Sequence record: OX457022
Length of the DNA stretch: 44,532 bases
Source: Escherichia phage vB_EcoP-CC1
Strand: one strand, 5' to 3'
Part shown: in pieces, positions 1-44,532 of the stretch
Position numbering within the stretch: the stretch's first letter is position 1
How the letters are laid out: every line of letters starts with the position of its first letter
Made by a program: the position numbers and the translations under genes
The notes under the pieces: generated by a model
Databases searched by the model: none
Told to the model about the DNA's origin: nothing
Seen by the model: the letters and a program-made list of their open reading frames with translations, nothing else

Positions 1-127
1 CATGTGCTGAAGGAGTGGCCTACATGCGACCAAACTTCGACTTCGGAGCTACAGTATCGGAAGACAATAATCTCATCCTGTGGCCGACTGAAGGTGAGAG
101 AATCGCTCTCATAGATGCTGACATGTT
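1..127. repeat. Window-end overlap: exact copy of 44406-44532 (circular-permutation or assembly overlap)
   Basis: Direct reading shows bases 1-127 (catgtgctgaaggagtggcc...gctgacatgtt) are identical to the last 127 bases. The overlap lies inside coding sequence. Confidence 0.95.
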
Positions 128-15557: not shown

Positions 15558-15601
15558 TATACTCAAGGTTTGTCTCACATGTGAGACATGCCTTTATGAA
15601 T
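15558..15601 (+). promoter_or_regulatory. RNase III-like hairpin with a palindrome apex (TATACTCAAGGT-tTGTCTCACATGTGAGACAt-GCCTTTATGAAT)
   Basis: It is intergenic. The flanks are identical to those of the hairpin at 41961-41996 and resemble the T7 R0.3 segment CTCAAGGGT...GCCCTTTATGAT (recalled). Confidence 0.55.
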
Positions 15602-22702: not shown

Positions 22703-22985
22703 ACATGCAGCCACAGAGGATGAAGTAGGCATCCTTCATGGCGCTATTACGAAGATGTTTAATAAGAAAGCACAGGCTATACTGGACACTATAGAAGAAG
22801 ACCCTGATTCTGCTATGCACTTAGTGTCAGGTAAGGATATTGGAGCCATGTGTAAGTGGGTTTTAGATAATGGCATTACTGCAACCCCTGCTGCACAGCA
22901 GGAAGAATCTAAGTTGTCTAAGCGTCTCAAGGCTATCCGAGAGGCGTCCAGTGGTAAGATCATTCAGTTTACTAAGGAGGATTAA
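22686..22985 (+). CDS. Terminase small subunit (gp18-position)
   Basis: GGAGGA precedes the ATG at 22686, directly upstream of the large terminase. Confidence 0.55.
   Translation: MSVHNKHAATEDEVGILHGAITKMFNKKAQAILDTIEEDPDSAMHLVSGKDIGAMCKWVLDNGITATPAAQQEESKLSKRLKAIREASSGKIIQFTKED
22777..22799 (+). promoter_or_regulatory. Intragenic near-consensus phage promoter (CTATACTGGACACTATAGAAGAA)
   Basis: Positions -13 to +5 are identical to the consensus, and it lies upstream of the large terminase. Confidence 0.5.
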
Positions 22986-24880
22986 TGGCTAAGGCAAGAG
23001 AATCACAAGCGGAGGCTCTTGCCAGATGGGAGATGCTACACGAGTTACAGCAGACCTTCCCTTATACGGCAGAAGGTTTGCTTCTCTTTGCTGATACAGT
23101 TATTCATAATTTAATTGCAGGTAGTCCTCATCTGATTCGTATGCAGGCAGACATCTTGAAGTTCCTATTCTATGGGCACAAGTATCGCCTCATCGAAGCG
23201 CCCCGTGGTATCGCTAAAACTACGCTGGCAGCAATCTATACGGTGTTCCGTATCATTCATGAGCCTCATAAGCGTATCATGGTTGTATCCCAAAACGCCA
23301 AGCGAGCAGAGGAAATTGCAGGTTGGGTGGTCAAAATCTTCCGAGGATTGGACTTCCTTGAGTTTATGCTACCGGATATATATGCTGGCGACCGTGCATC
23401 CGTCAAGGCATTTGAGATTCACTACACGTTACGCGGCAGCGATAAGTCGCCTTCTGTATCCTGTTACTCTATCGAAGCAGGAATGCAGGGTGCTCGTGCT
23501 GACATCATTCTAGCAGATGACGTTGAATCTATGCAGAATGCGCGTACAGCAGCAGGTCGTGCATTACTTGAGGAACTGACAAAGGAGTTTGAATCTATCA
23601 ACCAGTTTGGTGATATCATCTACCTTGGTACACCTCAGAACGTCAACTCAATCTATAATAACCTTCCGGCTCGTGGTTATTCCGTGCGCATCTGGACTGC
23701 TCGCTATCCTTCGGTAGAACAGGAGCAATGCTATGGTGATTTCCTTGCACCTATGATTGTGCAAGATATGAAGGATAACCCAGCATTGCGAACAGGCTAT
23801 GGTCTGGATGGCAACAGCGGCGCTCCTTGTGCGCCTGAAATGTACGATGATGATGTCCTGATTGAGAAGGAAATCTCACAGGGTGCTGCTAAATTCCAGC
23901 TTCAGTTCATGCTTAACACTCGCATGATGGATGCTGACAGATACCCATTGCGCCTAAACAATCTAATCTTCACCTCATTTGGTACAGAGGAAGTCCCTGT
24001 GATGCCTACGTGGAGTAATGATTCCATTAACATCATTGGGGATGCACCTAAGTATGGCAACAAGCCTACAGATTTCATGTATCGACCTGTGGCACGTCCA
24101 TACGAATGGGGTGCTGTTACACGCAAGATTATGTATATTGACCCCGCTGGTGGCGGTAAGAACGGAGATGAGACTGGTGTAGCCATCGTATTCCTGCACG
24201 GCACATTCATTTATGTGTATCAGTGCTTTGGTGTACCGGGCGGATACCGAGAATCTTCCCTGAATCGCATTGTGCAGGCCGCAAAGCAGGCAGGGGTTAA
24301 AGAGGTATTCATAGAGAAAAACTTTGGTCATGGCGCGTTTGAGGCGGTAATTAAGCCATACTTTGAACGAGAGTGGCCTGTGACACTTGAAGAGGATTAC
24401 GCAACTGGTCAGAAAGAACTCCGCATCATTGAGACGCTAGAGCCATTGATGACCGCGCATAGGCTCATCTTCAATGCGGAAATGGTTAAGTCAGATTTCG
24501 CTTCAGTACAGAACTACCCGCTTGAACTGCGGATGTCTTATAGTCTGTTCCATCAAATGTCGAACATCACTATTGAGAAGAACAGCCTTAGGCATGATGA
24601 CCGCTTAGACGCTCTGTATGGCGCTGTGCGTCAATTAACTTCCCAGATAGACTATGACGAGGTTACTCGAATTAATCGCCTCAGAGCGCAGGAGATGCGC
24701 GATTATATACAGGCGATGAATACACCTAAACTTCGTCGGGCTATGCTGTACGGCGATTATGGTGATGAGCGAAGAACAACCAACACCTCCTTAGCGATGC
24801 AGCAGCGGGTTTACGGTCAGAATTGGAGGAGCCGCTCTGGGTCTAGAAATACACTTTCCTCAAGGATTTCAAGGATTTAG
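22985..24880 (+). CDS. Terminase large subunit (gp19-like)
   Basis: It is 631 aa with a Walker A-like EAPRGIAKTT and ILADDVE, plus a strong SD. Confidence 0.9.
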   Translation: MAKARESQAEALARWEMLHELQQTFPYTAEGLLLFADTVIHNLIAGSPHLIRMQADILKFLFYGHKYRLIEAPRGIAKTTLAAIYTVFRIIHEPHKRIMVVSQNAKRAEEIAGWVVKIFRGLDFLEFMLPDIYAGDRASVKAFEIHYTLRGSDKSPSVSCYSIEAGMQGARADIILADDVESMQNARTAAGRALLEELTKEFESINQFGDIIYLGTPQNVNSIYNNLPARGYSVRIWTARYPSVEQEQCYGDFLAPMIVQDMKDNPALRTGYGLDGNSGAPCAPEMYDDDVLIEKEISQGAAKFQLQFMLNTRMMDADRYPLRLNNLIFTSFGTEEVPVMPTWSNDSINIIGDAPKYGNKPTDFMYRPVARPYEWGAVTRKIMYIDPAGGGKNGDETGVAIVFLHGTFIYVYQCFGVPGGYRESSLNRIVQAAKQAGVKEVFIEKNFGHGAFEAVIKPYFEREWPVTLEEDYATGQKELRIIETLEPLMTAHRLIFNAEMVKSDFASVQNYPLELRMSYSLFHQMSNITIEKNSLRHDDRLDALYGAVRQLTSQIDYDEVTRINRLRAQEMRDYIQAMNTPKLRRAMLYGDYGDERRTTNTSLAMQQRVYGQNWRSRSGSRNTLSSRISRI

Positions 24881-27233: not shown

Positions 27234-27256
27234 ATTTACTGGACACTATAGAAGGA
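27234..27256 (+). promoter_or_regulatory. Phage RNAP promoter (ATTTACTGGACACTATAGAAGGA)
   Basis: It is a consensus match upstream of the second fibre gene. Confidence 0.85.
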
Positions 27257-27333: not shown

Positions 27334-28857
27334 ATGGCTAAACTAACGAGAGTCACTGACTGGCTTGTTAAGGTAAAGTCCAGACTCACTGGTGCAGTAG
27401 AGCGACTGCTTGAAGATAAGTTAAATGACACGGTTAGTGTTAAGGACTTCGGTGCTAAGGGTGACGGTGTGACAGACGACACACAAGCATTTGCTGCCGC
27501 CTCAGCCGCATCGCCTCAAGGTGTTTATGTGCCTGACGGAACATATTTATTACCAGAAGATATTAATGGCAGGTTCTATGGTTCTGGTAAACGCATCAAG
27601 GCTGTAGGTGATGGTGGTATTCCTTTTACCAATGTAGCTCAGTCACATAGTAACCTAATATTAGGATATGATGCTGCAAAGGATTACACGGACGAAGGGA
27701 AAGGCAACCAATTAGTATTACTTGGCCCAAGCTCCGGTCGTAACCTTACCACTGGTACTAACTCCATTGTGGTAGGTGTTGGTGGCCTATCGGGTGATAC
27801 ATTAGAAGATGCACTAACAGATAAATCACCTTTCACTGGTACAGAGATTATTAGCATTGGTATCAATGCTCTTAAGAAAACTACCACTGGTAACAACATG
27901 ATTGGTATTGGTCGTGATGCCCTGAACGAGTGTAAGGATGGAAGATTCAACGTAGCTATAGGTATGTCTGCTTTGCAGCAGCTACACTCTGGTGAGGCTA
28001 ACGTAGCAATAGGGCGTTCAGCCGGTATGCGTACTGGCATCTTCACTAACGAAGATGGTGTACGATTAGGCTATACAAAATGTAGCGGTAATACCTTAAT
28101 AGGTAACGCGGCTGGTCGTGAATTGAAGTCAGGTAATCATAACACCGCCGTAGGCAATGGTGCTATGCGAGGTGTCAGTTCTGATATTAATCCATATACT
28201 GGCACTCTAGAGGGTAATTTTAATACAGCTATTGGTGTTGATACCTTAAACTCCTTAGCATCTGGTGAGTTGAACACCATGATTGGCGCAAGGGCTGGGC
28301 GTAAATTACCTAGTGGCTCTGGTAACATCTTCATCGGTGCGGATGCAGGTGCAGGTATTAACATTGAAAAGTCTAACACTCTCATTATTAACAACCACAC
28401 TGGCTTACCTTTCGTAGAAGGTATTATGGATGGTGCTCAGAGTGAGAATAACTACTTACGTGTTGATGGAAGTGTAGCACCTCAGATTGATAACACAAGA
28501 ACTTGTGGTCAGTCTAGCCGTAGATGGCAGACTGTCTTTTCTACCAATGGTGTTATCCAGACATCGGATGGACGATGCAAGGATGTCTACGATATTGCCA
28601 AGACGGAGTACATGGCTGGTCTAGAGTTATCTTCTAGTATGATTAAGTTCAAATGGACAGATACTAAAGAAGATAAGTATCACTTCGGTTGTCTGGCACA
28701 AGAGGTCATGCTGATTATGGAGAAACATGGGTTAAACCCTCTGGATTATTCCCTCGTTACCTATGATGCTGAAGCAGATATGTATGGTGTTAACTATGCA
28801 GAATTGTCTTGCTTCTGTATCGCAGCAATGTCCAATCATGTACTAGGCAGTGCGTAA
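27334..28857 (+). CDS. Tail fibre/tailspike 2 with a C-terminal S74-type chaperone
   Basis: AGGAG precedes the ATG at 27334. VKDFGAKGDGVTDDT is a pectate-lyase-3-type motif. About 9 repeats fit the N.(A/I/V)IG..A(L/G) pattern. The C-terminus reads RRWQTVFSTNGVIQTSDGRCKDV...YHFGCLAQEV. Confidence 0.8.
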   Translation: MAKLTRVTDWLVKVKSRLTGAVERLLEDKLNDTVSVKDFGAKGDGVTDDTQAFAAASAASPQGVYVPDGTYLLPEDINGRFYGSGKRIKAVGDGGIPFTNVAQSHSNLILGYDAAKDYTDEGKGNQLVLLGPSSGRNLTTGTNSIVVGVGGLSGDTLEDALTDKSPFTGTEIISIGINALKKTTTGNNMIGIGRDALNECKDGRFNVAIGMSALQQLHSGEANVAIGRSAGMRTGIFTNEDGVRLGYTKCSGNTLIGNAAGRELKSGNHNTAVGNGAMRGVSSDINPYTGTLEGNFNTAIGVDTLNSLASGELNTMIGARAGRKLPSGSGNIFIGADAGAGINIEKSNTLIINNHTGLPFVEGIMDGAQSENNYLRVDGSVAPQIDNTRTCGQSSRRWQTVFSTNGVIQTSDGRCKDVYDIAKTEYMAGLELSSSMIKFKWTDTKEDKYHFGCLAQEVMLIMEKHGLNPLDYSLVTYDAEADMYGVNYAELSCFCIAAMSNHVLGSA

Positions 28858-28870
28858 GCACTGCTTTTCT
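28846..28870 (+). terminator. Rho-independent-type terminator overlapping the fibre 2 stop
   Basis: GCAGTGC-GTAA-GCACTGC is followed by TTTTCT. Confidence 0.7.
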
Positions 28871-28937
28871 CGCAACTTCCCTTGAAGCAATCTAGCGATA
28901 CCTTCAAGGGAATAGCTCAAGAAAGCAAGGAGGTTTG

Positions 28938-29087
28938 ATGCCGTTGATCAAATCAGTTAAGCAAAGTGCTGTACACCAGAACACAGAAGAACTTATTCAA
29001 TCAGGACGTGACCCTAAGCAGGCCTATGCCATTGCCAAGGATGTACAGCGTCGTGCCATGAAGAAACCTTCTGCATCTTCTGCGTAA
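28938..29087 (+). CDS. Hypothetical 49-aa basic protein
   Basis: AAGGAGG precedes the ATG. The sequence is MPLIKSVKQSAVHQNTEELIQSGRDPKQAYAIAKDVQRRAMKKPSASSA. Confidence 0.5.
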   Translation: MPLIKSVKQSAVHQNTEELIQSGRDPKQAYAIAKDVQRRAMKKPSASSA

Positions 29088-29221
29088 TCAGGTTAATATC
29101 TTAGTGTACACAAGGGCAAACCTATGATAGCTCACAGCACACCTCTGAGTGCCGCTCTGGATTCTATGAATTGTTCCCTGACTATCTAGGTTTGCTCTTA
29201 GTATATTACAAAGGAGGTCAC

Positions 29222-29377
29222 ATGATTTGGATCCACACGTATGGTGTAGGGTCATTCAAGAAGAATGTACTCAGGAAGATCCATGAGTCCGAGGAATCAG
29301 CCTTAGCCAGCCAGAAGGTACTTGGTGGTACTATCCAGTGCTACATGAAGAAGCCACAAGGTTTTGACTTAGTGTAA
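29222..29377 (+). CDS. Hypothetical 51-aa protein (last gene before the genome end)
   Basis: AAAGGAGG precedes the ATG at 29222. The longer track ORF beginning at 29171 lacks an SD. Confidence 0.45.
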   Translation: MIWIHTYGVGSFKKNVLRKIHESEESALASQKVLGGTIQCYMKKPQGFDLV

Positions 29378-29435
29378 CCAAAGGTGGTCACAAAGTAACC
29401 AAAGTCAAAATTTTGATGTAGGCGTGTGTCAGCCC

Positions 29436-29724
29436 TCTCGCCCTCGCCCTCGCCGGGTTGTCCCCATAGGGTGGCCTGAGGGAATCCGTCTTCGACGGGC
29501 AGGGCTGATGTACTCCTTGTACTAGCTTAGTAGTACACAAGGGCTGGCCTTTTGTTTTGCCATGTACTAGCAAGGTGGAACGCTGGAGAGCGCCTAGGAC
29601 GGCCTAGGGATGGGCTTAGTGGTGGACAAGGTGATTGCCTTAGTGAAGCCTCTTAGTGCATTCCTGAGGCCATTCAGGGCGTTTATGAGATATTGACAGG
29701 GTGTGCGTGGGTGGGCTATCTGTT
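29436..29724 (+). other. Presumptive terminal-repeat / concatemer-junction region
   Basis: TCTCGCCCTCGCCCTCGCC begins at 29436, CCCCATAGGG lies at 29462-29471 and CTATCTGTT ends at 29724. These parallel T7 left-end features (TCTC..., CCCCCATAGGGGG, CCCTATCTGTT; recalled). The boundaries are not determinable from a collapsed assembly. Confidence 0.45.
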
Positions 29725-29794
29725 CGTTTCGTTCACTCCGCTTGCGCTACGTTCACTCGCTCACGTGTACCTTAGGTTGTTCCTTGATGGATAG

Positions 29795-29897
29795 CTTAGG
29801 TTAGCCTTAGTGGACTACCTTAGTTATAACCTTAGTGCTTATCTTAGTAATAGCTTAGTAATGTACCTTAGTAAGTCTTAGTGTCTTCTCTTAGTGA
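29795..29897 (+). repeat. Dense array of 9 CTTAG(T/G) short repeats spaced 10-13 bp
   Basis: Read directly. About 10 more copies are scattered across 29526-30216 and one lies at 30835. It is analogous to the T7 SRL/SRR arrays next to the terminal repeat. Confidence 0.8.
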
Positions 29898-30042
29898 TTG
29901 CACATGCAAGCATGTAAGATGCCATTAGGTCGCGGTCGGTAGACCGCTAAAGAAAGAGAATAGTAATAAGATGCAGTAGGAGGAACACCAGAAACCTAGC
30001 CAACCTAACCTATCCTAGCTCTGTATCTATTGCTTTTCCTTA

Positions 30043-30058
30043 GTCTAACATGTGAGAC
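30043..30058. repeat. Palindrome family copy, 1 mismatch (GTCTAACATGTGAGAC)
   Basis: Read directly. It is intergenic, 35 bp upstream of the -35 element of the first early promoter. Confidence 0.7.
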
Positions 30059-30092
30059 AACCTAGATTTATCTTAGTGATGATAGCTTAGTG

Positions 30093-30121
30093 TTGACAAG
30101 GCCATCTCAATGTAATACTAT
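30093..30121 (+). promoter_or_regulatory. Host sigma70 early promoter (TTGACA-17 bp-TACTAT)
   Basis: It has a consensus -35 element, 17-bp spacing and a good -10 element, upstream of the first early ORFs. Confidence 0.65.
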
Positions 30122-30192
30122 TCATCACGTAGGCAGCACTGAGGTGCTTAGTAGCCAGCTAGTAAGGCATACGAAGAGACTAGTGCCTGCAT

Positions 30193-30209
30193 TGCTCTTT
30201 AACAATTTG
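30193..30209 (+). promoter_or_regulatory. rrn-type boxA (TGCTCTTTAACAATTTG)
   Basis: It matches the E. coli rrn leader boxA TGCTCTTTAACAA. A hairpin at 30132-30190 precedes it. Confidence 0.65.
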
Positions 30210-30263
30210 CTTAGTGTAACCTATGTATGCCGTGGTTAATTACTTATTGAATGAGGGTTAACT

Positions 30264-30359
30264 ATGAATTACGAAGAAATGTATGAAGACTACTTCAATT
30301 CACTTGATGAAGGAGAAGAAGCATTGTCCTTTGCTGAGTTTATGGAGGCTTTATCATGA
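30264..30359 (+). CDS. Early 31-aa highly acidic peptide
   Basis: GAGGG precedes the ATG. The sequence is MNYEEMYEDYFNSLDEGEEALSFAEFMEALS. It is coupled to the next ORF by an ATGA overlap. Confidence 0.45.
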   Translation: MNYEEMYEDYFNSLDEGEEALSFAEFMEALS

Positions 30360-30532
30360 TTCTGAATAACCGTGAACTATCCATTCTCTTCACCTTGTTG
30401 TGCTATATGATTCGTAACAACGAATTACTTACAGACGATGAACTGGCACTATATCACCGTTTCCTTAACGAAGGTTGGGTCGATACAGTTAACCAGAAAC
30501 GTGACTTGATGAAGGAGTTAAGCAATGTTTAA
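30356..30532 (+). CDS. Early 58-aa hypothetical protein
   Basis: GGAGG precedes the ATG, and the ORF overlaps both of its neighbours. Confidence 0.5.
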   Translation: MILNNRELSILFTLLCYMIRNNELLTDDELALYHRFLNEGWVDTVNQKRDLMKELSNV

Positions 30533-31275: not shown

Positions 31276-31389
31276 ATGGAAAAGCAATATAACTTTATCT
31301 TTTCAGACGGTGTGACCCTGAAGTGTTCCCTGCGTTTCGCACAGATTCGCGAGGAAGTGCTAGGAACTACATACAAACTATTTAGCTGA
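31276..31389 (+). CDS. Early 37-aa hypothetical protein
   Basis: The ORF starts 2 nt after the ocr stop. The sequence is MEKQYNFIFSDGVTLKCSLRFAQIREEVLGTTYKLFS. Confidence 0.4.
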   Translation: MEKQYNFIFSDGVTLKCSLRFAQIREEVLGTTYKLFS

Positions 31390-39309: not shown

Positions 39310-41842
39310 TTGGAAGAAGGAAGCAGAAGGCCGCATCCTCGTCATGGACGCAGAAGCTAAAGGTCTGCTTGATGCTATCCGCTACGGTCATCGTGAAGAT
39401 GTACACATCATTTGCTGCATGGACTTGCTCACCACTGAGGAGTTCCTCTTCTTCGACCCATATGAGATGCGTGACCCTGAAGCAAGAGAACGCCTGAAGG
39501 AGTGGGAAGGCCATCAAGATGGTGACTTGGTTGACGGTGTTAACTTCCTGAAACACTGTGAAGCTATCGTGTCACAGAACTTCCTAGGGTATGACGGCCT
39601 CCTTTTTGAGAAAGCCTTCCCTGATATCTGGAAAGGTTTTAACTATACCGAAAGGCGCGGCAAGGGCAGACTCCGTGCCGACCTGTGTCCTGTGCGAGTC
39701 ATGGACACGCTGGTGATGAGCCGCCTGTTAAACCCCGATAGACGCCTTCCTCCGCAAGCATATGCCAAAGGTATGGGTAACGTCGCCCCTCATTCAATTG
39801 AGGCGCACGGCATCCGTATAGGACGCTATAAGCCGGAGAATGAGGACTGGTCTAAACTAACTGACCACATGGTTCACCGTGTCCGCGAGGACGTGGCAAT
39901 CGGTCGTGACCTTTTCCTGTGGCTGTACAATGGAGAGTGGACGGAGCATAAACGCCGTGGCGTGAATAAACGCACTGGCCTAGGCATTGAGACAGCCTTC
40001 CACATGGAGTCTATTGTGGCGCTGGAGATGAGCCGTCAGGCAGAGCGTGGATTCCGTCTGGATATTGACAAAGCACTAGCGCGATGCGAAGAACTGGACG
40101 CTAAGATTGATGAGACAGTCGCAGCGTTCCGCCCTCACATGCCTATGCGTATCAAGTCTAAACCTTTTAAACCGGAAGAAAAGAATGAAGTATGCCAACG
40201 CGCAAATGAGTATGGAGCTAGCAACAATATACCTACTGTCCTTGACCCCTCACACTTTCTTCATGCCGAGAGACGAGGAGATCGCAAGACAGTATGGAGT
40301 GTCACTACTAAGTCTGGTGATTGGTCGGCTAGCGTCAAGAAAGACTTTCCTCACCTTAGAGGAAACCGTAATGACACGCCAAGCATCAAGTGGATTGGCG
40401 CTTACTCGCCTGTTACTTTCGAAGAGATTCCCTTGGGTAACAGGGATACAGTTAAGCAAGTGCTCTATGATTATGGATGGAAAGGTGTTGAATTTAACGA
40501 TACCGAGCAAGCGCATCTCGATGAGCATGGCGTATTACCCAAACCTTGGAGTGGAAAGATAAATGAGAAATCCCTTACTTTATGGCAAGAAAGAGCCGCA
40601 CGTGAAGGTAAAACAGTACCAGATTGGTGCTTGGGTATCGCTGCATGGTACATACTCGTATCCCGTCGTGGTCAGATCCTCAACCGTGGTGACGTTGAAG
40701 CCTTCGATCAGAAGGGGGCGTGGCCTTCGCAAGCTGGTGTACGAAAGTGTCGCGGCCTTATACCTGTAGCCTTTAACAAGGAATTAGGAATCAATGCGCA
40801 ACAATACTACGAGAGGTATGGGTATTGGCCTACGTCTGACAAGGATGACGGAGAGTGGCGTGTGCCAGCTATTGCTATTAGTATTGGCACTTCTACGTTC
40901 CGTATGCGTCATCGCAATGTGGTTAATATTCCTGCCCGTGGCTTGTATCCTTTACGTGATTTATTCATAGCAGGTAAAGGTAAGCTAATCCTTGGTTGTG
41001 ATGGTGCAGGTCTTGAACTACGTGTACTTTCTCACTTCATGAATGACCCTGAGTACCAAGATATTGTACTGCATGGCGATATACATACTCATAACCAGAT
41101 GAAGGCGGGTCTTCCTAAGCGTGATATGGCGAAGACATTTATATATGCCTTCCTTTACGGCTCTGGTATAGCTAACCTTGCAGCAGTGTGCGGTGTTACT
41201 GAGGAAGAAATGAAGGAAGTTGTGGCAAGATTCGAGATTGAATTACCATCCCTTGCACGTCTTCGTGAGAATGTTATCGCACAAGGCAACAAGTTTGGAT
41301 ACTTACAAGCACCTGACGGGCATTGGGGTCGCATCCGTATGTCTGGTGGAGAACTTAAAGAGCACACTATGCTTAATGTATTACTCCAAATGACTGGCTC
41401 TTTGTGTATGAAATACGCATTGGTCAAAGCGTTTGCAGTGATGCGCAAGGAAGGTGTGGCCTTAGATAGTATGGGACACCCTTGTGGTGTAGCTAACGTG
41501 CACGATGAAATCCAGATGGAAGTACCTGAAGAAGAGGTATTGTATCTTAACTACGACCTACCTTTCACCTTAGAGGGGTTTGAAACAGAGAAGGCTGCTG
41601 TGAAAGCAGTATTCGATGCAGAGGAGAAACGTGTTCATGTGGATTCTGAAGGACGTATGTGGTCTGCTGCAAATCTCATTAGTGTTGATGCTGCTGCTGG
41701 TGTACTTCATTGCCAGCGTCGTTATCACCGCGCAGGGCATATCATTGCCGACGCCATGACTTGGGCTGGTCAGTATCTGAAGATGCGTTGCCCGATGGCA
41801 GGCGAGTATAAGATTGGCGCAAGCTGGAAGGAAACGCACTAG
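39296..41842 (+). CDS. DNA polymerase (family A, T7 gp5-like) with a 3'-5' exonuclease domain
   Basis: The start MKTIDWKK has GAGG upstream. The exonuclease motif is LVMDAEAKGL. Polymerase motifs are LGCDGAGLELRV, RDMAKTFIYAFLYGSG and NVHDEIQMEV. Confidence 0.95.
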   Translation: MKTIDWKKEAEGRILVMDAEAKGLLDAIRYGHREDVHIICCMDLLTTEEFLFFDPYEMRDPEARERLKEWEGHQDGDLVDGVNFLKHCEAIVSQNFLGYDGLLFEKAFPDIWKGFNYTERRGKGRLRADLCPVRVMDTLVMSRLLNPDRRLPPQAYAKGMGNVAPHSIEAHGIRIGRYKPENEDWSKLTDHMVHRVREDVAIGRDLFLWLYNGEWTEHKRRGVNKRTGLGIETAFHMESIVALEMSRQAERGFRLDIDKALARCEELDAKIDETVAAFRPHMPMRIKSKPFKPEEKNEVCQRANEYGASNNIPTVLDPSHFLHAERRGDRKTVWSVTTKSGDWSASVKKDFPHLRGNRNDTPSIKWIGAYSPVTFEEIPLGNRDTVKQVLYDYGWKGVEFNDTEQAHLDEHGVLPKPWSGKINEKSLTLWQERAAREGKTVPDWCLGIAAWYILVSRRGQILNRGDVEAFDQKGAWPSQAGVRKCRGLIPVAFNKELGINAQQYYERYGYWPTSDKDDGEWRVPAIAISIGTSTFRMRHRNVVNIPARGLYPLRDLFIAGKGKLILGCDGAGLELRVLSHFMNDPEYQDIVLHGDIHTHNQMKAGLPKRDMAKTFIYAFLYGSGIANLAAVCGVTEEEMKEVVARFEIELPSLARLRENVIAQGNKFGYLQAPDGHWGRIRMSGGELKEHTMLNVLLQMTGSLCMKYALVKAFAVMRKEGVALDSMGHPCGVANVHDEIQMEVPEEEVLYLNYDLPFTLEGFETEKAAVKAVFDAEEKRVHVDSEGRMWSAANLISVDAAAGVLHCQRRYHRAGHIIADAMTWAGQYLKMRCPMAGEYKIGASWKETH

Positions 41843-44225: not shown

Positions 44226-44519
44226 ATGCCGACTATTGAAGAACGTTTCCTGATTCACGTAGACTTCTCACCCATACATCTTGGTTATCTTATCACTATT
44301 CTCTTAGGAGAGGAGGTTTATCTACATAATTACCTTATACCTGAATATGTATGTTTTAGGGATAAGATACACCCGCTTACTTGGGCACAAGAGTGGCTGC
44401 GTGAACATGTGCTGAAGGAGTGGCCTACATGCGACCAAACTTCGACTTCGGAGCTACAGTATCGGAAGACAATAATCTCATCCTGTGGCCGACTGAAGGT
44501 GAGAGAATCGCTCTCATAG
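44226..44519 (+). CDS. Hypothetical 97-aa protein overlapping the exonuclease start
   Basis: GGAG lies 8 nt upstream. The 3' 91 nt overlap the exonuclease CDS, whose start is at 44429 (equivalent to 24). Confidence 0.4.
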   Translation: MPTIEERFLIHVDFSPIHLGYLITILLGEEVYLHNYLIPEYVCFRDKIHPLTWAQEWLREHVLKEWPTCDQTSTSELQYRKTIISSCGRLKVRESLS

Positions 44520-44532
44520 ATGCTGACATGTT

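Follow-up and report, generated by a model that had tools for sequence, protein, structure and literature searches.

The segment from 29436 to 29718 of a 44,532 nt stretch of DNA from Escherichia phage vB_EcoP-CC1 (sequence record OX457022; hereafter the window) is very probably a single, assembly-collapsed copy of a direct terminal repeat of about 283 bp, representing both physical ends of the genome and bordered by an ATCTGTT pause signal (a probability of roughly 0.85). A first-pass annotation, made from the letters of the window, had suggested a terminal repeat and concatemer junction of this kind by analogy with T7, and the reading is supported, with corrections to the inner boundary, to the importance of a hairpin and to the status of the pausing. 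In kind, a terminal repeat with a junction signal is an ordinary, documented and already known property of SP6/K1-5-like phages.

A megablast search with positions 29100-30300 of the window found a match of 100% identity in vB_EcoP-CC2 (OX638290.1), alongside many Vectrevirus and other SP6-like genomes in which, for the most part, 62-82% of the query is matched, at around 84-96% identity; in BLAST comparisons, the region is around 90-95% identical to many Vectrevirus genomes. By sequence identity, the window comes from Escherichia phage vB_EcoP-CC1/CC2, which belongs to Vectrevirus, within the SP6/K1-5 group. The CC1 and CC2 genomes, of 44,531 and 44,532 bp, were assembled with metaviralSPAdes and annotated with Prokka, in a paper that includes no terminus determination (PMC10433417). 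The first 127 bases of the window (1-127) are identical to the last 127 (44406-44532), an overlap of the kind that SPAdes commonly leaves, at k = 127, on a circular contig; the unique length is therefore 44,405 bp, not 44,532 bp. All of the large ORFs are found on the + strand, except for three short overlapping ones, and each of the 13 SP6-type promoter-like sites (repeat family D1, with the consensus ATTTACTGGACACTATAGAAGA) is also on this strand. Searches with T7 proteins using tblastn identified a homologue of the RNA polymerase (32% identity) and one of the large terminase subunit, gp19 (36% identity, 492 aa, E = 2e-81, at 23126-24580). The T7 lysozyme, gp3.5, had no significant tblastn match in the window (the best being 26 aa, with E = 0.011), and neither did gp2 or gp18; the homologue of gp18 is probably too diverged to be detected in this way, and a small-terminase ORF is annotated in relatives.

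The boundaries of the repeat were located through seven related linear GenBank records, spanning three genera, in which the terminal repeat was taken as the longest exact prefix/suffix match between the two ends. These repeats are 174-288 bp long and have homologous boundaries: they extend to 174 bp in SP6 (AY370673), 234 bp in K1-5 (AY370674), 262 bp in phD2B, 283 bp in P3a, 285 bp in R4596 (MK373771.1), 286 bp in mutPK1A2 and 288 bp in K1E (NC_007637), with those of phD2B, P3a (as repeat_region 1-283) and mutPK1A2 (as a 'redundant repeat') being annotated in the records. All seven start within 4 nt of one another, at ...GTGTCAGC(TC)|TCTCG(G)CC..., the equivalent of 29434-29438 in the window, which agrees with the left edge at about 29436 originally put forward, and all end at ...G(G/C)(C/G)TA|TCTGTT, the equivalent of 29718. 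In BLAST alignments, the records of R4596, P3a, EEc4, EEc2, K1-5 and VEc3 start at the equivalent of 29436-29438, and those of P3a, AAPEc6, KAW1A4500, mutPK1A2 and K1E end exactly at position 339 of the query, corresponding to 29718; the match to Proteus phage Pm5460 ends at query position 54 (29433 in the window), with the record itself finishing 2 nt later, at the equivalent of 29435. The first-pass annotation had the repeat running to just past 29724, but the repeats of the relatives stop at 29717/29718, the first base of the heptamer. The ATCTGTT sequence is therefore essentially outside the repeat, and would be present once per virion genome.

No second copy of the repeat was found in the window, as no 15-mer of 29436-29718 recurs elsewhere within it, in keeping with the earlier suggestion that the repeat had been collapsed to one copy. 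Short terminal repeats are known to collapse into a circular closure during assembly (PMC3350473), and for the SP6-like phage UAB_Phi78, Bal31 digestion and run-off sequencing showed that the ends are fixed and carry a short, direct terminal repeat (PMC4837284). On the basis of these homologous records, the ends of the CC1 virion DNA would lie at 29436 and 29718, positions placed by homology; the predicted uncertainty is +/- 2 nt around 29436 at the left end and -1 nt at the right. Deposited left ends vary by up to 4 nt among the relatives, and the right end may owe its final A to an artefact of run-off sequencing (PMC4925675); the T7 repeat stops one base earlier than the deposited SP6-group boundary, which in the window falls after the A of ATCTGTT. 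The predicted virion genome should start at 29436 of the window and comprise approximately 44,405 + 283 = 44,688 bp.

The RefSeq annotation of the UAB_Phi78 repeat (1-180) is offset by around 10-15 nt relative to SP6, and the repeat of R4596 is given as 428 bp by Korf et al. (PMC6563267), as opposed to the exact 285 bp in its GenBank record. CDSs encoding a 'hypothetical protein' are annotated inside or across the repeat and junction of relatives, including UAB_Phi78 gp01 (104-388), phD2B_001 (164-394) and several in the MZ2340xx records; these calls are probably spurious, corresponding to non-coding end sequence.

Table 1. Features at and around the proposed genome ends of vB_EcoP-CC1, in window coordinates
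Feature	Position	Strand	Remarks
Terminase large subunit	22985-24880		
Last SP6-type phage promoter before the junction, ATTTACTGGACACTATAGAAGG	27234-27255	+	Family D1; next downstream at 31380
Conserved unique block left of the left terminus, GGTGGTCACAAAGTAACCAAAGTCAAAATTTTGATGTAGGCGTGTGTCAGCCC	29381-29435	+	Perfect palindrome TCAAAATTTTGA at 29405-29416
Predicted direct terminal repeat, about 283 bp, one collapsed copy	29436-29718	+	From TCTCGCC... to ...GGGCTA
CTCGCC x3 repeat, extreme left end	29437-29454	+	CTCGCC or CTCGGC repeats in 11/11 aligned junctions
GTCCCCATAGGGTGG, C-run/ATA/G-run mini inverted repeat	29460-29474	+	Offset 25-39 from left end; kept in all aligned relatives
Imperfect hairpin, no functional part	29515-29542	+	Fold z = +0.61; segment not conserved
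Right-boundary block, TTGACAGGGTGTGCGTGGGTGGGCTATCTGTTCGTTTCGT	29693-29730	+	Conserved in 11 junctions, 6 genera
ATCTGTT, preceded by T (HATCTGTT), predicted class II pause/termination signal	29718-29724	+	Only sense copy
8 CTTAGT(G/A) repeats, 10-13-nt spacing	29806-29895	+	Part of a larger array
Best sigma-70-type early promoter candidate, TTGACA-17-TACTAT	30093-30121	+	10/12 matches; downstream of left end

As originally described, the motifs of the junction lie within a long non-coding stretch, which appears in the list of ORFs as a gap between the last small + strand ORF and the first early ORFs: no plausible gene is found from 29378 to around 30263, leaving approximately 885 bp between the ORF ending at 29377 and the early ORFs starting at about 30264. 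No known RNA family was detected in 28800-30400 at E <= 1. The three CTCGCC units, GTCCCCATAGGGTGG and the sequence GGGCTATCTGTT (29713-29724) containing ATCTGTT, all of which had been picked out previously, were recovered at the same positions, with TCTCGCC beginning at 29436. The arms of the imperfect hairpin listed with them, CCTTGTACTA (29515-29524) and TAGTACACAAGG (29531-29542), are likewise present, but the structure is neither significant nor conserved. Its predicted folding energy is -16.1 kcal/mol (z = +0.61), with 142 of 200 shuffled sequences folding equally well, and when 11 junctions were put into one alignment, the segment proved to be deleted from K1-5 and to have no counterpart in SP6, phD2B, Koku, the Proteus phage or POP72. 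A role for the hairpin as a functional structure or a terminator was rejected on the basis of its z score, the lack of a + strand terminator call and its loss from K1-5 and SP6.

This alignment represents six genera or groups, namely Vectrevirus, Zindervirus, Tuodvirus, Ulipvirus, a Proteus phage and Axomammavirus, and across these both the end motifs and the GGGCTATCTGTT block have been retained. The start common to the aligned repeats consists of TCTCGCC repeats and CCCCATAGGG, the middle part is variable and rich in indels, and at the right boundary is a block of around 35 bp, of the form TTGACAG.GTGTG...GGGCTATCTGT. The TTGACA motif (29693-29698) is found 18 nt upstream of TATCTG, and TTGACAG is present in 10 of the 11 junctions; it could have been conserved as a weak host promoter or as an element of the processing signal. 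On the other side of the repeat, the 55 bp from 29381 to 29435, which in the virion would lie just inside the right-end repeat copy, have 85-98% identity to phages of Proteus, Klebsiella, Salmonella and Lelliottia whose similarity to the 421-bp query is otherwise slight. This block is the best candidate for a recognition site used in packaging or concatemer processing.

Short oriented repeats flank the terminal repeat and enter it: there are 20 + strand copies of CTTAGT(G/A) in 29100-30215, and the window as a whole contains 57 copies of CTTAGT, compared with 29.6 expected, a number reached by none of 100 shuffles. Similar arrays are found in SP6 (83-569) and in Klebsiella and Proteus relatives. 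A separate family (D4) of near-perfect palindromes, (G)TTGTCTCACATGTGAGAC, is composed of 20-nt units with seven copies, at 15568, 30039, 35570, 36370, 37938, 39151 and 43686; these appear to be intergenic, with one lying in the early leader (30039-30058), and could represent RNA-processing sites, terminator hairpins or protein-binding sites.

The class II signal of phage polymerases is composed of HATCTGTT followed by T-rich sequence (PMC11347151; bioRxiv 10.64898/2026.02.12.705533), and such signals have been described as general to phage RNA polymerases (PMC11347151). In the window, the sequence TATCTGTT at 29717-29724 matches HATCTGTT on the + strand, which serves as the non-template strand and runs the same way as transcription; the heptamer itself is situated in unique left-end DNA, such that in concatemers it would be found directly to the right of each junction. 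The tail that follows, CGTTTCGTT, has six T bases in nine positions with no unbroken run, the T7 concatemer junction (CJ) also having no T-run; in class II signals, a downstream T-rich tract serves release and is not required for the pause.

Over both strands of the window, ATCTGTT is not enriched, occurring seven times relative to an expectation of 8.2; bare enrichment was hence rejected as an argument, the informative part being the strand asymmetry alone. The sense (+) strand carries only one of these copies, at 29718, the remaining six all being on the - strand. In CC2, K1-5, SP6, phD2B and T7, there is similarly one sense-strand ATCTGTT each, at the repeat edge, with 2.7-3.5 expected per genome. 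When six genomes are pooled, the hexamer ATCTGT is observed 19 times on the sense strand, compared with 79 (order 1) or 54 (order 3 Markov) expected, a depletion that could partly reflect coding bias, in genomes that are related to one another and not independent. It is present in all six genomes and ranks at about 45 of around 4000 hexamers, after the palindromes of restriction sites, and is not seen for the reverse complement. Such purging of the sense strand only is what would be predicted from selection against unwanted pausing or termination, and so provides indirect support for the signal. Among the palindromes, CTGCAG (2 copies, as against approximately 105 expected), GCATGC (0, as against approximately 80-95), CAGCTG and GAGCTC, together with CCTGG-containing hexamers, are nearly absent from the pooled genomes; the near-absence of these six-cutter palindromes is classic restriction-site avoidance.

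The heptamer is found at the homologous position in 10 of the 11 junctions, the exception being that of POP72, a Pectobacterium phage of the genus Axomammavirus, which has ATCTGTC at its junction (44108) and no ATCTGTT on the sense strand. The change could mean that the pause specificity has shifted or that the variant is tolerated; it counts against a pause signal at this position, occurring even though class II signals have been described as intolerant of base changes for the T7 polymerase. Scholl et al. 2004 are said to discuss ATCTGTT at the repeat edge. A full-text search of the literature other than that paper and Dobbins 2004 (PMC374404) returned nothing relevant on ATCTGTT at the edge of the SP6/K1-5 repeat.

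Comparison with known systems places the junction closest to those of the other Molineuxvirinae. In K1-5, K1E, SP6, mutPK1A2, R4596 and phD2B the sequence is homologous, at around 75-95% identity, and shares the start, with its TCTCGCC/TCTCGGCC repeats and CCCCATAGGG, the end at GGGCTA|TCTGTT and the conserved block preceding the left end, as well as the CTTAGT arrays downstream. The differences concern the length of the repeat, which varies through indels in the middle part (K1-5 being without around 50 bp, from about 29527, that hold most of the hairpin); a single base at the left junction (CAGCCC versus CAGCTC); and the form of the deposited window, in which there is just one, collapsed copy of the repeat, within a sequence that is arbitrarily permuted.

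In T7 the repeat also begins with TCTC, and a CCCC(C)ATAGGG(GG) motif is again found around 25 nt from the end, as TTCCCCCATAGGGGGTA at an offset of 24-40 with the core CCCCCATAGGGGG. As had been anticipated by the first-pass annotation, the position of ATCTGTT at the inner edge of the repeat also follows the T7 layout: the T7 repeat occupies 1-160 (...GTGTCCCT) and the heptamer 161-167, on the sense strand and as the sole HATCTGTT on that strand. In both phages the repeat is bordered by arrays of short, oriented units, which in T7 are clusters of CCTAAAG at 17-332 and 39671-39837, and the polymerases and large terminases are homologous. However, beyond the short motifs no similarity in sequence is evident, judging by inspection and not by alignment. 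The repeat is 160 bp long in T7 and 283 bp in the window; the flanking unit is CCTAAAG in the former and CTTAGT(G) in the latter; homologues of the gp3.5 lysozyme and gp2 were not detected in the window by tblastn; and the tail of the signal in the window is T-richer (CGTTTCGTT, relative to ACAGTCTCC in T7) and has no TGnTA promoter motif. A T7-like extended -10 promoter within the pause site was rejected owing to the absence of this motif.

The class II terminators PTH, VSV and rrnB T1 have the same HATCTGTT core, likewise on the non-template strand and with T-rich sequence after it (PMC11347151; bioRxiv 10.1101/2021.01.11.426313). These are fortuitous or heterologous signals, with longer U-runs that give efficient termination, whereas that of the window is native to the phage and situated at a genome junction. 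By analogy with the T7 CJ, it is more likely to act as a pause site than as a terminator.

These observations can be assembled into a proposed route from concatemer to virion. The virion DNA would be linear, running from TCTCGCC (29436 +/- 2) round the circular map to a second copy of the repeat ending in ...GGGCTA (29718), and on replication, genomes would be joined head to tail through the repeat to give concatemers with one repeat at each junction. Phage RNA polymerase would then transcribe rightward over the junction, the promoter at 27234-27255 being the likely source of these polymerases. With no terminator-like site found on the + strand in 28700-30500 and the last promoter at 27234, passage of polymerases over the junctions of concatemers is to be expected. 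On meeting TATCTGTT just beyond the repeat, the polymerase would pause a few bases downstream. In the model for T7, the polymerase pauses just past the concatemer junction and recruits gp18/gp19 (PMC5569994; PMC3276506); by the same analogy, the paused complex would mark the junction for the terminase, which would cut at both repeat boundaries, with duplication of the repeat in the course of packaging. That the CC1 polymerase pauses at ATCTGTT, and that packaging needs it to do so, we infer from T7. The T7 pause is stabilised by T7 lysozyme, and a gp3.5 that might mediate the pause in this manner was not found; given that no T7-type lysozyme homologue was detected, any pause here must work without one.

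A tentative elaboration, which we regard as possible but rather doubtful, is that the junction is a composite element of around 35 bp (TTGACAG-N-GTGTG...GGGCTATCTGT), in which a pause heptamer is combined with a site for the terminase or nuclease, operating independently of lysozyme and with the heptamer having co-evolved with the polymerase. Under such an arrangement, the ATCTGTC of POP72 suggests co-evolution of heptamer and polymerase in some genera, and the purging of ATCTGT from the sense strand would constitute a genome-wide readout of the pause specificity of the polymerase.

It is unlikely that, with the ends as given above, the GGGCTATCTGTT block serves chiefly to be recognised and cut as DNA by the terminase or a processing nuclease, the match to the pause heptamer being incidental or secondary. 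Such a role would fit with conservation over some 35 bp (TTGACAG..GTGTG..GGGCTATCTGT), well beyond the heptamer; with the cut context CTN|TCT(C/G) shared by the two repeat boundaries, and by T7; with the retention of the block in POP72 despite ATCTGTC; and with the T7 lysozyme homologue going undetected by tblastn in the window. However, a fragment of 6-7 bp from a long terminase site would need no avoidance elsewhere, while in six genomes ATCTGT is avoided throughout, and on the sense strand alone, as selection by a transcribing polymerase would predict, and class II signals have been described as general to phage RNA polymerases (PMC11347151). Nor are the terminase and pause roles mutually exclusive.

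Also improbable, to a slightly greater degree, is the interpretation of TTGACA (29693-29698) and the TATCTG 18 nt downstream as a promoter for host sigma-70 that overlaps with the pause site. The former is a perfect -35 hexamer, held at a fixed distance in 10 of the 11 junctions, and the T7 junction element has sigma-70 promoter activity that depends on context (bioRxiv 10.64898/2026.02.12.705533), but this activity needs the extended -10 motif TGnTA, which is TGTTA in T7; the window instead has TGTTC, like the inactive PTH signal. TATCTG is itself a poor -10 sequence, with the final T missing, and a consensus scan made no call here. Headful packaging, or packaging with permuted ends, in which the region would be just intergenic regulatory sequence with early promoters or an origin, is extremely improbable: the closure of the assembly as a circle, through a 127-bp overlap, and the host-type promoter candidates just downstream are compatible with it, but circular closure is the expected product of short-repeat collapse (PMC3350473), fixed and identical ends are found at precisely these positions in many relatives, the large terminase is of the T7 gp19 type and the fixed ends of UAB_Phi78 were shown experimentally (PMC4837284).

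With the segment read as a collapsed terminal repeat, the deposited genome is arbitrarily permuted, carries a 127-bp duplication introduced by the assembler and omits the second copy of the repeat; the phage being a therapeutic candidate, the chief gain is a practical one, in the form of a corrected genome structure. The junctions aligned here show that the T7 layout, of a repeat edge directly followed by ATCTGTT, extends over the SP6-like subfamily. This layout and the avoidance of the heptamer core on the sense strand support a conserved, transcription-coupled step in the packaging of these phages, and leave the known picture unchanged.
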